Shown here: one piece after another, positions 319 through 5,601 of the stretch
Layout of the letters: the number at the start of each line of letters is the position of its first letter
Numbering within the stretch: position 1 is the stretch's first letter
From: a virus
Direction: 5' to 3' (one strand)
Virus genome (UHGV): UHGV-1781188
DNA: 20,865 nucleotides
The notes under the pieces: generated by a model
Told to the model about the DNA's origin: nothing
The model's database searches: none
Seen by the model: the letters and a program-made list of their open reading frames with translations, nothing else
Position numbers and translations under genes: made by a program

Positions 319-582
319 ATGAAACGTCTGGATCAGCTTAAATTAGTTCAGTACATGGCCTACAGAATTCTTGAAGTCCAAAAAGGTAGCAAAAAAGAGG
401 TTTGCGAGAAAGCTTATAAGATCTTTACCCGCAAAAAAGATGACTGGATGCTACGCCAGACCAAAAAGGCTGACATCTTGGGGTACCTGGAAGAAGAGAT
501 CCGCCTTGAAGAGCAAGAAGAGATCCGCCGTAGTGAGGCAGATTATCAGGCAGCTTGGGAAAGCTGGATGAGTAACAAATAA
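319..582 (+). CDS. hypothetical Lys/Glu-rich protein (87 aa)
   Basis: ATG at 319 with SD aaagagga about 7 nt upstream; charged helical-looking sequence. Confidence 0.6.
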   Translation: MKRLDQLKLVQYMAYRILEVQKGSKKEVCEKAYKIFTRKKDDWMLRQTKKADILGYLEEEIRLEEQEEIRRSEADYQAAWESWMSNK

Positions 583-728: not shown

Positions 729-1148
729 ATGAACATTAAATCTAATAATCCGGCATATAGCTTTGATAACGCTTTTTGTCACGGTCCGGCGGCGAAAGGA
801 TTCGAAATCGATGGTAAACTAATTATTGTCAATGTTGACGGGGAAGAGGTTGCAGTATATCCGGTGGCAGACGTTAAAAGCCGTTTGCAATGCCGCATGG
901 ATGTTACCGCCTACCAGCTTGATCCGGTCCGCATAGTTGCCCTGGTCCTGGAGGAAGAGATCAAAGCCATGCATCATAGCAACAAGTTTATCGGTGACGC
1001 GCAAGATAATATGAAGGTATGCCGCTATAAAGTTAATGAAGTGCTTAAAGAATATGGCTTCAAAGATCTGATGATCAAGCGTGATGAAAAATTCCGTTAT
1101 CGTAACGACCTGGCAAATCGAATCTATGAAATATACGAATCATTATAA
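729..1148 (+). CDS. hypothetical protein (139 aa)
   Basis: ATG at 729 with SD taagaggt upstream; intact ORF followed by terminator. Confidence 0.65.
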   Translation: MNIKSNNPAYSFDNAFCHGPAAKGFEIDGKLIIVNVDGEEVAVYPVADVKSRLQCRMDVTAYQLDPVRIVALVLEEEIKAMHHSNKFIGDAQDNMKVCRYKVNEVLKEYGFKDLMIKRDEKFRYRNDLANRIYEIYESL

Positions 1149-1166: not shown

Positions 1167-1199
1167 AGGGGCTTTAAAAGGCCCCTTTCTTTTTGTCTG
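1167..1199 (+). terminator. rho-independent terminator
   Basis: GGGGCTTTT / AAAAGGCCCC near-perfect hairpin followed by tttctttttgtc. Confidence 0.6.
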
Positions 1200-1802
1200 T
1201 ATTTCTCCTACCACAAACGGCCCAGCCTGGCAAGTGGAATAATTGACTAGCCATCAATCCAACACACTGTACAAACATACATGTAAAATAACTATTGCAT
1301 AATTTTTCATTGTGTGGTAGCAGGTCCATTTTTACCCGCTTTTCCTTCCAAAACTGCATGCAATTCCGCTATTGCACAAAATTTAACCTGATGCACAATA
1401 TCTCTTTCTTGTCAACAACTAAAAATCTTTATAAGTCATACACTTACATAACTACAAAAGCGTGTTCTACGTGAAAAATCGAGTATAACTATAGCCGCCA
1501 GATCTCAGAATTTACGTACGCTCACCATTCTATAGCCAGCTAAGTATTTATTCCGACCATAGAATAACGGAATAGTCAATATCTGCATAAAATAATTATT
1601 CGTGTAAACTGCATAACATAAATCAGCTCAGGTGTCAACATTTTTCGTAAACAGTCCGAAATTATCACGATGAGTTATCATAAACAGAGAAATCTTTAGT
1701 CGTCTAATGTTTACTGTACATTACTATACTGACTGGAATCATTAGATGACTAAGAGAAAGATAAGAAATAATTAATAGTGTAATTATTTTACCTGTAACA
1801 AT

Positions 1803-1980
1803 AAGGCAACTATGCAAACGAATGGCATGGCGCGACGGAGTCGCGACATAATATAAAAGCAGTAACCATCACCCCCGTGATAGTTTGTCTGCAATCTATT
1901 AATCAGATCATAGTTGCCTTGTATTTAGTTAATCATGACATAACAAGCAAGGCAACTATAGATCTTCTAATAGTTGCCCT
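1803..1980. repeat. 11-bp iteron AAGGCAACTAT, four copies in alternating orientation
   Basis: direct at 1803-1813 and 1949-1959; reverse-complement ATAGTTGCCTT at 1910-1920 and ATAGTTGCCCT at 1970-1980 (1 mismatch). Confidence 0.6.
1812..1831. repeat. 20-bp direct repeat, copy 1 (ATGCAAACGAATGGCATGGC)
   Basis: identical 20-mer recurs at 2073-2092. Confidence 0.7.
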
Positions 1981-1996
1981 GCTTTTATATTATGTC
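1845..1996. repeat. 18-bp perfect inverted repeat pair flanking the iteron cluster
   Basis: GACATAATATAAAAGCAG at 1845-1862 and its exact reverse complement CTGCTTTTATATTATGTC at 1979-1996. Confidence 0.7.
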
Positions 1997-2013
1997 ATAG
2001 AAACACCCGAAGG

Positions 2014-2030
2014 GGTGACCAAAGGTCACC
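2014..2030. repeat. perfect palindrome GGTGACC-AAA-GGTCACC
   Basis: 7-bp arms, 3-bp spacer; flanked by cccgaagggg. Confidence 0.6.
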
Positions 2031-2072
2031 TGGCATAGCCAGCGAAAGATTATTAACTTGCTAATCGTTATC

Positions 2073-2092
2073 ATGCAAACGAATGGCATGGC
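2073..2092. repeat. 20-bp direct repeat, copy 2 (ATGCAAACGAATGGCATGGC)
   Basis: identical to 1812-1831; followed by TTATAAT. Confidence 0.7.
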
Positions 2093-2183
2093 TTATAATT
2101 TTTGAGCAAATAGTCTATACGTGAACAGTGAGGCATGCAATAGTAACAATTGTTATTGTATCCAGTGTGTTGAGTATGCCCAG

Positions 2184-2221
2184 TGTGTCACTATTATGTC
2201 ATATTATGTCACAGTATGTCA
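2184..2221. repeat. four helically phased short repeats (TGTGTCA, then TATGTCA x3 at 10-bp period)
   Basis: TGTGTCA 2184-2190; TATGTCA at 2195, 2205, 2215; TGACATA (reverse) also at 1936-1942 and TATGTCA at 1991-1997. Confidence 0.6.
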
Positions 2222-3536
2222 GACAAGTTTTCCTCCTCTTTGTCAAGTGCTGCATGAAAAATTTACAAACTGGTATGGTAGCATTTTTGCGGCCCTGTTT
2301 ACATTCAGTAATGTATGTATAATCCTTGTTGTGTGGGCGTTTAGACGTCTAGACGGTCAGAAGTCCGCAGGTCAATAACTAATCTATCGGCTGCTAACTA
2401 TATCCCACACAAATAGTAAGAAATATAATTGTTATGTGTGTAAACAGTAACTCATGTTATCAATCCCTGTATGGATCGCCAGTGGTGCGCATAATGGGTA
2501 TTATGTTAAATTGCCCGTAATGATAACAGTTCTCACAATGATAGGTATTCTCATTCACCCCCACAAGATAGGTTGCAAATGTTGTGCCACTGTGTGAACG
2601 GCCTCACCTATTAATTTGCCTCACTGCCTCGATATTTGAGAATTGTTATAAGAATGAGAAGTATTCCCATTTCGTCCGCCTGGCAGCACTCCAGTCGCTA
2701 CCGGCTCCTGACAGGGAGGCACTCCTGTCGGTCAGGTCAAAATCATGGTATAACTGGACCTGTTCAGATATTTCTGGCTGGCTCTTCAGGTCTGTGTGGG
2801 AAAAGCCAACCTCTCAGGCGGGGCAGGGGGGTCATGACGGGAAAATTGCAGGTCAATTAAAAAATTTACGTGGTGTATGAAGCGCTCTTCAGGTAAGGCA
2901 TGTATTATGGGATGAAACCCTCTTCAGGCAATGATATTTGTGGGTGTGATATTTGCTGGAAAGCCAGATATGACGGGACTCCCGGCTGGGCAGGGGTAGT
3001 ACAGACAGGGGAAATATGGAGGATGTAGTTGGGTGAGTTGATCAGACAGGTTGGGTATAGATATGTTACAAGTATGTTAAATATGGAGGGTGAATATCTG
3101 TAGGATTTATGTGTAAAATCAAAGACTTAAGTGGTGTTGTGGTATTTTCTATAAATAATTCAAGTTTAATAGGTAATATTTGTCTCTGTCCGCTTTGTGT
3201 GGTAAGCAAATTCAGATGGTGTTGGTTTACAAGTGTATACATAATATACAAATTAAAGATACAAGAAACCCCCCTCCCCCTTCGGCTACCATTCACCTTT
3301 TCCTCTGACTGGTACTTAAACACTTATTCAGACTCTTCAGGTTATCACCCATATATCATATGGCAGTGACTGGTGTCCTCCGGCCCCTCTTTCGTCACCC
3401 GTCCGCTTCGCCATGCTAATGCCATAGCCAATGGTTCGGTTGTTCACCCTGTTCACTCAGGTGTATCTCCATACCCCTTCAAACCGAAGAGAACAGAAAA
3501 CCCGAATTACTCGGTAAAAGAAAAGAGAAGAACTTA

Positions 3537-3564
3537 ATTTTATCAGGATAGGCAAGAATGTCAA
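3537..3564 (-). promoter_or_regulatory. sigma70-like promoter directed into the non-coding region
   Basis: minus strand TTGACA (3564-3559), 16-bp spacer, TAAAAT (3542-3537); no convincing CDS downstream. Confidence 0.4.
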
Positions 3565-3691
3565 GGCATGACTGCTCACTAAACAAGCAAACAGTCATGT
3601 GTGGGAGGTAAGTGATTGTGGTGGTAGGAAATTTAGTTGAAAGATGTGTTATAGGTGCTTCCAGCACTTTAGCCGGGCAGCTAATTGTGTG

Positions 3692-3907
3692 TCAGTCCAG
3701 CGGTTCATCCTCTACTTCACTGAAATCAATGTTCATGGTCTCTTCCCAACCATCGATCTCAGCACAAGAGTGGAGTTCTTTAGGGTTTACTCCCAAAGCC
3801 TCAGCAACAGAGTCTATATTTAACACCTCTGGCAGGTATGATTCATCGAATTCAAGGTAAATCAGGCCACGAGTGTTGTCAGCTCCACCAAATATCTCTA
3901 TCTTCAT
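3692..3907 (-). CDS. small acidic protein (71 aa), MKIEI-type N-terminus
   Basis: ATG with SD agaggaga upstream; acidic C-terminus; N-terminus resembles other MK(I/V)(E/K)I genes in the block. Confidence 0.6.
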   Translation of the reverse strand: MKIEIFGGADNTRGLIYLEFDESYLPEVLNIDSVAEALGVNPKELHSCAEIDGWEETMNIDFSEVEDEPLD

Positions 3908-4026
3908 AAAATCTCCTCTGGGAATGAGAGTGTGAACAGGATTATACGTCCAAATGCGCAGGAATTATGCACGTTTGCCTCTTCAGGCCATGCTTTAGCA
4001 TGAGGAACCTGTGTGGGCTCGGTGCT

Positions 4027-5295: not shown

Positions 5296-5601
5296 TTATT
5301 CTACAGAGCGTTTGAACAGAATGTCTGCCTCGGACATGTGCTCAACCTCTTCTTCGATTTTAGCTCGACGTTTTTCAGCCTCATAGCGAATATCAAACTC
5401 GGTAGCAACCAGAGATTTGATGAATTTAGGAGAATACAGGTGATCCTGCTTCTCAACGAGAATGATATCCTTAATGGCATCTTTCAGATCTTTAATCTGA
5501 AGTTGGAGTTCCACCAGTTCTTCGATTGTTTTGCGAAGGCGATCACGCTCTGCAGTGTCAGAAGGAAGAGAGGTGAACAGTTCAACTTTAGATTTAGCCA
5601 T
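5296..5601 (-). CDS. hypothetical charged coiled-coil protein (101 aa)
   Basis: ATG with SD aaggaga upstream; heptad-like charged sequence. Confidence 0.7.
   Translation of the reverse strand: MAKSKVELFTSLPSDTAERDRLRKTIEELVELQLQIKDLKDAIKDIILVEKQDHLYSPKFIKSLVATEFDIRYEAEKRRAKIEEEVEHMSEADILFKRSVE

Follow-up and report, generated by a model that had tools for sequence, protein, structure and literature searches.

A predicted multi-hairpin DNA element beside the terminal repeat of rV5-like phages

We analyzed a stretch of 20,865 nucleotides (nt) from the virus genome UHGV-1781188, referred to here as the window, and in particular a cluster of repeats at positions 1803-2092, the repeat module. The window belongs to a Vequintavirus, an rV5-like myovirus of about 137 kb, and the nearest record is phage PDX, with 96.7% identity. 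The module appears to be a conserved, cruciform-capable, multi-hairpin DNA element made up of a small hairpin, an 18-bp outer stem, two or three inner hairpins, and a bracket of 20-bp direct repeats. It is unique in the genome, it lies next to a direct terminal repeat (DTR), and its base-pairing has been under selection in two phage subfamilies. From its position and structure, we infer that the element acts in cis on the DNA in end formation or packaging, and we give this reading a probability of roughly 45%.

The module lies inside a gene-free gap of about 2.5 kb (approximately 1190-3691) between two converging gene clusters. The plus-strand cluster ends with a terminator at 1167-1186 and the minus-strand cluster ends at 3692. 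The counterpart of the gap in rV5 is the interval between open reading frame (ORF) 163 and ORF164, which is the sole long gene-free region there. The rV5 paper draws this interval as a grey box "labeled non-coding," and the skew analysis in that paper failed to place the origin. In the literature searched on rV5-, phAPEC8-, and phi92-type phages, no description of the gap or the element went beyond "non-coding," and the element appears to be undescribed. An initial annotation of the window had likened the cluster to an iteron-type origin or a multi-operator site. We shifted the most likely function away from an iteron origin because the genome end and the DTR lie 130 bp away.

Parts of the repeat module

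The repeats listed in the initial annotation were all present at the positions given there. The perfect 18-bp inverted repeat has its left arm, GACATAATATAAAAGCAG, at 1845-1862 and its right arm, CTGCTTTTATATTATGTC, at 1979-1996; the arms are 100% complementary and are separated by 116 nt. Four copies of the 11-mer AAGGCAACTAT, named iterons in that annotation, alternate in orientation. A1 (1803-1813, plus strand), A2 (1910-1920, minus strand), and A3 (1949-1959, plus strand) are exact and A4 (AGGGCAACTAT, 1970-1980, minus strand) has one mismatch. The spacings, 107, 39, and 21 bp in the window compared to 107, 72, and 21 bp in rV5, are irregular, and the copies are inverted. The claimed palindrome around a GATC-containing spacer was found at 1945-1959 and 1970-1984; it is 93% complementary and its spacer is 10 nt long. 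Two perfect copies of the 20-mer ATGCAAACGAATGGCATGGC, both on the plus strand, flank the module as direct repeats C1 (1812-1831, left) and C2 (2073-2092, right). C1 is present in all relatives and is overlapped by two bases by A1, which stands outside the structured core. The palindrome GGTGACC-AAA-GGTCACC (2014-2030) lies within a variable cassette (1997-2072), together with a hairpin at 2004-2017 that is terminator-like on the minus strand (2017-2004). These hairpins are found in this lineage, and other lineages have unrelated sequence in the cassette.

Several parts went beyond the initial annotation. A small hairpin, CGCGAC-GGA-GTCGCG, is predicted from the DNA fold at 1831-1845, directly before the outer repeat. 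Just inside the left arm, a second predicted hairpin, AACCATCAC-CCCC-GTGATAGTT (1864-1885), which we call inner hairpin 1, is terminator-like on the minus strand. A longer imperfect inverted repeat covers 1891-1977, with arms at about 1891-1921 and 1948-1977, and holds A2, A3, most of A4, and two GATC sites. In the covariance-model alignment described below, A2 and the 5' part of A3 form hairpin 2, while the 3' part of A3 and A4 form hairpin 3. A second motif, TATTATGTCA, makes up the outer part of the 18-bp arms and has further copies at 1936 (minus strand), 2192, 2202, and 2212. The last three of these belong to a row of tandem 10-bp units, TATTATGTCA, TATTATGTCA, and CAGTATGTCA (2192-2221, plus strand), which ends exactly at the left boundary of the terminal repeat. 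Between C2 and these units lies a hypervariable stretch (2093-2191) with an array of GTRAAYAGT at a period of about 17 bp, in which a clear unit is seen at 2121-2129.

The controls placed the repeats far beyond chance. Allowing one mismatch, AAGGCAACTAT had five matches in the window compared to 0.59 expected, and none of 100 shuffles reached five. The 20-mer had two perfect copies compared to zero expected. In the rV5 genome (138 kb), every motif family was confined to the module locus. That whole genome had just five perfect inverted repeats whose arms are 12 nt or longer and whose loops do not exceed 200 nt, and three of these were in the module, including the longest (18 nt). The longest arm over 20 random genomes of the same size was 15 nt at most. 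When the window was scanned as single-stranded DNA in 690 segments, 1831-2010 gave the most stable fold (z = -6.1), and compared to shuffles of itself this DNA fold had a z of -9.65.

Conservation within Vequintavirus and the FV3 deletion

The block at 1803-1996 was near-invariant, with identical spacing, in 13 of the 14 relatives fetched, and the left outer arm was invariant in the same number. Pairwise identity over the block was 0.96-1.00, the highest in the left arm of the gap, and conservation stops at the end of the right outer arm. The non-coding sequence to the left of the block (1190-1802) had pairwise identities of 0.88-0.98 among nine genomes. Indels are concentrated to the right of the block, at 1997-2200, a hot spot with alternative cassettes and an identity of 0.06-0.37; the variable cassette itself had a pairwise identity of 0.37 with 37% gaps. 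The GTRAAYAGT units in this hot spot number one or two in the window, about nine in Murica, and about 11 in rV5 (105,440-105,640). Where indels occur in the structured part, they sit in loops and the stems remain paired. The rV5 element (L017, 105,736-105,948) has a 33-bp insertion in the 26-nt loop between A2 and A3, and VEcB and KP2025 have palindromic insertions in the loop of hairpin 3.

The module was found at the same place in 118 of 119 genomes. The only genome without it was that of FV3 (L013, NC_019517, 1924-1960), in which a segment of about 261 bp is gone. This is a clean deletion with C1 and C2 as its end points, leaving a single 20-mer and keeping A1. Such a loss is what slippage across a palindrome classically leaves behind; it may be genuine or an artefact of cloning or sequencing.

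Inverted repeats bracketed by direct repeats, along with the "empty" FV3 site with its single 20-mer, could also be expected of a selfish element resembling a miniature inverted-repeat transposable element, or otherwise ending in terminal inverted repeats, with a 20-bp target duplication. However, the module is found once per genome and its motifs had no match in 5,426 E. coli genomes. Its constant place in 118 of the 119 genomes and a homologous, syntenic element in another subfamily also argue against mobility. The initial annotation had proposed a check for target-site duplications flanking the 18-bp repeats, and these were not found, as the 20-mers do not abut the arms but are set off from them by 13 bp on the left and 76 bp on the right. 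A related idea, an invertible switch bounded by the 18-bp repeats, is at odds with the single orientation seen in about 28 relatives examined and with the lack of a recombinase among the neighbors. The initial annotation had already ranked a mobile element as the less likely choice, and we find an explanation of either kind extremely improbable.

A homologous element in Stephanstirmvirinae

An element with the same plan was found in phages of another subfamily, the Stephanstirmvirinae, which includes the phAPEC8-, phi92-, and Schickermooser-like phages. In Phapecoctavirus, the ORF164-type gene lies about 1.2 kb from the end of the record. In the record of phage Schickermooser, the last 329 nt repeat the first 329 nt, and Korf et al. 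(2019) gave a terminal repeat of 328 bp for this phage. Here, a small hairpin is followed by a perfect 15-bp inverted repeat around about 98 nt with three hairpins, and then by 208 bp up to the DTR. The gene, the element, and the start of the repeat are at 2501-2920, 3483-3645, and 3849 in Schickermooser and at 729-1148, 1820-1999, and 2222 in the window. The order of flanking gene, terminator, about 600 bp, element, about 115-226 bp, and DTR is common to both subfamilies, in the same orientation, and is also seen in L159. A BLAST comparison of Schickermooser to the window found no DNA similarity past the flanking gene.

The pairing in this subfamily is kept while the letters change. In eight phages (Phapecoctavirus, Justusliebigvirus, and relatives from Klebsiella and Citrobacter), the outer repeat was perfect at 15 of 15 positions in all, and four variants of the 15-bp arm were each compensated on the opposite arm. 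RNAalifold on the alignment of the eight gave 49 pairs, 13 of which had two-sided changes. Among 12 distinct Stephanstirmvirinae sequences, 573 of 586 cells (97.8%) were Watson-Crick pairs, compared to 20-36% when the partners were slid by one to three columns. Two-sided covariation was seen at 14 of the 49 pairs within Stephanstirmvirinae and at 25 of the 49 across families. In the first helix, which corresponds to the window hairpin at 1831-1845, three of seven pairs had two-sided changes.

A covariance model, R1, was built solely from the eight Stephanstirmvirinae sequences and run over the whole window with filters off. It gave a single strong match, at 1820-1999 on the plus strand, covering the full model (positions 1-166) with 40.9 bits and a rough E-value of about 5e-10; the next best score was 8.9 bits. 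Each Vequintavirus locus had one match in the same orientation, the whole rV5 genome had one, and FV3 had none. In the alignment, the hairpin at 1831-1845 is helix 1 and the 18-bp repeat is the outer stem. Hairpin 2 is formed by A2 and the 5' part of A3, and hairpin 3 by the 3' part of A3 and A4. The alignment is fitted to the model and the independent evidence is the score gap; with that understood, 42 of the 49 model pairs form in the window, and 17 of these 42 differ on both sides from the commonest Stephanstirmvirinae pair. The match supports the view that the window module is a homologue of the Stephanstirmvirinae element.

Both elements share the small hairpin, the perfect outer stem, the inner hairpins, and the order of ORF164-type gene, element, and DTR. 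The first bases of the two terminal repeats are also alike (GACAAGTT compared to AGCAAGTT). The counterpart of inner hairpin 1 in Schickermooser is ATAACCATC-GGT-GATGGTTAT. The outer stem is 15 bp in Stephanstirmvirinae compared to 18 bp in the window and the loop of hairpin 2 is 3 nt compared to 26 nt. Only Vequintavirus has the 20-bp direct repeat at the flanks and the AAGGCAACTAT motif.

A divergent, Vequintavirus-like metagenomic contig, L158, separated the structure from the 11-mer. Its flanking protein is 93% identical and its non-coding arm can barely be aligned to the window. It has a perfect outer repeat of 17 bp, GACATAATAACGCTGAG and CTCAGCGTTATTATGTC, complementary at 17 of 17 positions, the inner half of which is unlike that of the window. 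Inner hairpin 1 is compensated and keeps the CCCC loop of the window (GACAATAACAC-CCCC-GTGTTATTATC), and a co-varied direct repeat of 30 nt flanks the module. No match to AAGGCAACTAT was found in L158 at up to one mismatch. Since L158 retains the outer repeat, inner hairpin 1, and the direct repeat without AAGGCAACTAT, the comparison shows that the structure is conserved and the 11-mer sequence is not. The initial annotation had proposed looking for the iteron in related phages, and it was kept in the 13 relatives mentioned above and lost in L158. Its idea of an iteron-type origin or multi-operator site therefore holds in part: the unique, non-coding, cis-acting type of architecture stands, but the repeats are inverted and irregular, pair as stems, and lack the 11-mer in L158. 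Among the searches for more distant relatives, a loose pattern, AACCATCNNNGATGGTT, gave 120 unrelated loci in IMG/VR, none of them useful, and other IMG/VR scans gave only a few further contigs.

Conserved secondary structure with covariation could also be the mark of a structured non-coding RNA gene transcribed from the junction region. A sigma-70-like site at 2222-2193 on the minus strand, followed by the terminator-like hairpins at 2017-2004 and 1885-1864 on the same strand, would fit such a gene. However, the one candidate promoter, weak or non-conserved, lies in the hypervariable repeats and by eye is not kept in EdH4-type sequences, and no Rfam family matched the window at the gathering threshold. 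The pairs themselves, 97.8% Watson-Crick, include almost no G.U. Non-canonical cells were two G.T compared to eight A.C in Stephanstirmvirinae and 19 G.T compared to zero A.C in Vequintavirus, with no consistent strand bias. Perfect arms of 15-18 bp are also more typical of DNA palindromes. Due to the pure Watson-Crick symmetry and the perfect long arms, we favor a DNA palindrome, which could be a cruciform or a hairpin in either strand, and consider an RNA gene improbable.

Another possible explanation is that the palindromes are protein-binding sites on duplex DNA, with no hairpin extruded. The window has two palindromic units of about 29 bp, 63 bp apart (GCAACTAT-N10-ATAGTTGC, twice), to which the small terminase subunit, a nucleoid-type protein, or a regulator could bind. 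At 5296-5601, 3.3 kb from the module, lies a gene for a PHROG "transcriptional regulator," and binding sites would also fit a role in packaging. A precedent in favor of this explanation is the pair of oppositely oriented terminase sites in lambda cosB and P1 pac. However, the half-site sequence is not conserved in L158, and there are no downstream genes to regulate as both flanking operons end at the gap. At least four helices covary together, with loops of 3-4 nt and an outer stem spanning 116 nt, and several specificities would need to have co-evolved; base-pairing is simpler. Binding without extrusion is thus quite unlikely in our view.

The element lies beside the genome ends

Several sequence records indicate that the gap is the concatemer junction of a phage whose virion DNA has fixed ends and a terminal repeat of about 459 bp at 2222-2680. 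In the EdH4 record, positions 1-459 are identical to the last 459 nt and map to 2222-2680, which would make 2222 and 2680 the physical ends (459 bp in EdH4 coordinates). This agrees with the 458-bp terminal redundancies of EdH4 and HdK5 reported by Korf et al. (2019). The records of bov10K2 and three siblings, EdH4, and HdK5, from two laboratories, all have starts that map to the reverse complement of 2680, and this start was verified at base level for bov10K2 and EdH4. The last position of the Pr121LW record corresponds to 2221. In Shigella phage CM1 (L014, 2075-3120), a tandem duplication of 523 bp with 100% identity corresponds to 2158-2680. This is probably the terminal repeat left twice after rotation of the record, and the left boundary may be at 2158 in the CM1 lineage. 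The fixed ends at 2222 and 2680 were placed because of the CM1 duplication, the common starts at 2680, the report of Korf et al. (2019), the identity of the EdH4 ends, and the end of Pr121LW. From the left boundary of the DTR, the outer stem is 226 bp away and the second 20-mer 130 bp.

Most GenBank records of the genus are arbitrarily permuted. We dropped the idea that the record starts are mere assembly convention given the CM1 duplication, the common 2680 start, and Korf et al. (2019). A 546-bp duplication in I29 (L020, 2280-3419) was also tried as a terminal repeat and rejected; it has a palindromic junction of 60 bp and other boundaries and is probably an assembly artefact.

Possible roles of the element

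Each concatemer junction holds one terminal repeat, which has to be recognized, cleaved at two fixed positions, and duplicated. If a hairpin or cruciform were extruded next to the DTR, it could mark the junction for terminase or for a structure-specific nuclease. Alternatively, fold-back of the element could prime copying of the terminal repeat. The TATTATGTCA motif, common to the outer stem and to the three units abutting the cut site 2221|2222, would tie the structure to the point of cleavage. A fuller version of this scheme would have a cruciform or fold-back element mark the junction throughout an rV5-, phAPEC8-, and phi92-like clade and prime duplication of the DTR in the manner of parvoviruses. 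The arms would be regenerated by copying in each cycle and the direct repeats and TATTATGTCA units would position the cuts. We consider this version, with all of its steps, rather unlikely.

Various observations weigh against a role in end formation or packaging. The proposed function is drawn solely from position and structure, T7 has no homologous element by the R1 search, and the large terminase matched only the generic Terminase_6N/6C families, which do not indicate the packaging mode. Gene conversion between the two arms could also keep them perfect, with no functional selection involved. FV3 is a propagated phage without the module, and the element is therefore dispensable or redundant in the laboratory and not strictly essential; the gap in FV3 may, in turn, be a sequencing or cloning artefact induced by the palindrome. 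Finally, PhageTerm output led the authors of two genome announcements to describe vequintaviruses as circularly permuted or headful. One of the two records so labelled starts exactly at the repeat boundary, and for this reason we judged these calls less reliable, although the conflict remains.

The main rival explanation sees the element as an origin of replication or a signal for priming. Hairpins in single-stranded DNA could load the T7-like primase-helicase or prime synthesis, or the palindromic units could bind a phage initiator beside an AT-rich unwinding region. The element is a unique cis site with two GATC sites, and the adjacent 600 bp are AT-rich (GC of 0.31-0.34 at 1501-1800) and rank with the longer stretches of low GC in rV5. 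The genes of rV5 include those for a T7-type polymerase and primase-helicase and one, about 40 kb from the element, whose annotation names a replication initiation protein; the origin was not located in the rV5 paper. The FV3 loss would be tolerable if other origins or recombination-dependent replication exist. In T7, promoters near the ends are secondary origins, and plasmid packaging needed both an origin and the junction. However, direct phased iterons (at least three in helical phase) are absent, the spacing is irregular and shifted by 33 bp in rV5, and L158 retains the structure without the 11-mer. We found no DnaA box (up to one mismatch) and no IHF consensus in 1190-2222, and no initiator gene is adjacent. 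An origin would also not need the tight positional tie to the DTR boundary seen in two subfamilies. Across the complete rV5 genome, GC and AT skew followed the transcription units and were uninformative on the origin. An origin is, in our estimate, somewhat unlikely, and packaging and origin roles could coexist.

Flanking genes and other features of the gap

The left non-coding arm (1190-1802) starts after the terminator-like hairpin of the last plus-strand gene (1167-1186, plus strand). It is AT-rich (GC of 0.31-0.37) and gene-free in the annotation of relatives, and no LexA or CRP box was seen in it by eye. The last gene before the gap (729-1148, plus strand) is of the rV5 ORF164 type and belongs to a PHROG of unknown function. 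An ORF164-type gene with about 92% amino acid identity is present in Phapecoctavirus, a member of the other subfamily, where it is also the final gene before the terminal repeat. This likeness suggests exchange or strong conservation of the whole terminal module. The flanking proteins as a group had no Pfam domain and belonged to PHROGs of unknown function. One of them, an 87-amino-acid product encoded at 319-582 (plus strand), is named "DNA translocase FtsK" in the navn, isim, and nomine records; it had no Pfam match and its PHROG is of unknown function.

The right non-coding arm (2681-3691) leads to the other genome end. It is conserved, G-rich and then C-rich, and gene-free in the annotation of most relatives. 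Within 2700-3450, G-runs are followed by C-runs, and GC skew is up to +0.48 at 2851-3150 and negative at 3151-3600. The repeated motif CTCTTCAGG has six copies in the window compared to 0.18 expected, at 2782, 2885, 2920, and 3333 on the plus strand and also at 3979 and 20232; four of the six are in this arm, just past the terminal repeat. GGGCAGGG, a motif like the FtsK-orienting polar sequences (KOPS), occurs twice (2821 and 2988), weakly above chance. A link between these two motifs and the FtsK-labelled gene was considered and dropped, as the label has no Pfam or PHROG support. The segment at 3301-3600 has no annotated gene and is about 100% identical among nine vequintaviruses. A near-consensus sigma-70-like site (3564-3537, minus strand; TTGACA-16-TAAAAT with TG) is followed by a small terminator-like hairpin at 3514-3502. 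This segment could encode a tiny transcript or be another cis element.

Eighteen "Campylobacter phage" records (MG0656xx, host C. jejuni) were 91-96% identical to E. coli vequintaviruses over the region. They have the look of mislabelled or co-isolated E. coli phages.

Significance and comparison with known systems

Recognition of the junction and duplication of the DTR are understood, incompletely, for T7 and T3 only. The strongly conserved DNA structure lies beside the DTR in two subfamilies, with at least about 250 sequenced genomes carrying it, and gives a region labelled "non-coding" a testable function. Many of the phages concerned are therapy or biocontrol candidates for use on E. coli, Klebsiella, and Citrobacter, and locating the true genome ends matters for rebooting synthetic genomes, for engineering, and for the risk of transduction. 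A palindrome bracketed by direct repeats is also a deletion-prone spot, as in FV3, and a likely site of assembly breaks.

The T7 and T3 junction resembles the one described here in having a short direct terminal repeat with fixed ends, 160 bp in T7 compared to 459 bp here. In both cases, tandem arrays of short repeats abut the DTR (13-bp units at T7 175-341 compared to 10-bp and approximately 17-bp units here); the known cis elements of the T7/T3 type include such arrays on either side, SRL and SRR, and pac sites. T7 also has an imperfect 19-nt palindrome at 39568-39608, about 170 bp from its DTR. Hairpin DNA that includes the terminal repeat has been reported in T7 infection and figures in models of how the repeat is duplicated (citing Chung and Hinkle 1990). 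However, R1 had no match in T7, and there is no sequence or structural homology and no nested multi-hairpin element with a perfect long outer stem. The T7 junction also involves the phage's own RNA polymerase and promoters, which these myoviruses lack.

Iteron origins, such as lambda ori, P1 oriR, and those of plasmids, share the clustered short repeats, the unique non-coding site, the AT-rich neighbor, and the GATC sites. In contrast to them, the repeats here are inverted and mutually pairing, their spacing is irregular and variable, and the site has neither an initiator gene nor DnaA or IHF sites. The repeat sequence is also not conserved where the structure is.

The T-shaped hairpin of a parvovirus inverted terminal repeat, as in adeno-associated virus, is similar in that a long outer palindrome surrounds small inner palindromes close to an end of the genome, in a form that could serve as a fold-back primer. 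The hairpin of adeno-associated virus, however, forms the extreme terminus of a single-stranded genome and includes a nicking site and a Rep-binding element. The element here lies inside a duplex genome of 137 kb, about 685 bp in from the physical end, and no flip/flop was seen among about 30 genomes.

In filamentous phages (Ff), the intergenic region is gene-free and a series of DNA hairpins combines packaging and replication signals. The likeness is in the gene-free region and in function residing in DNA hairpins. However, the Ff phages are a different virus type, with single-stranded circles in which the hairpins act in single-stranded DNA, and there is no homology. The element is best filed as cis-acting structured DNA at a phage concatemer junction.

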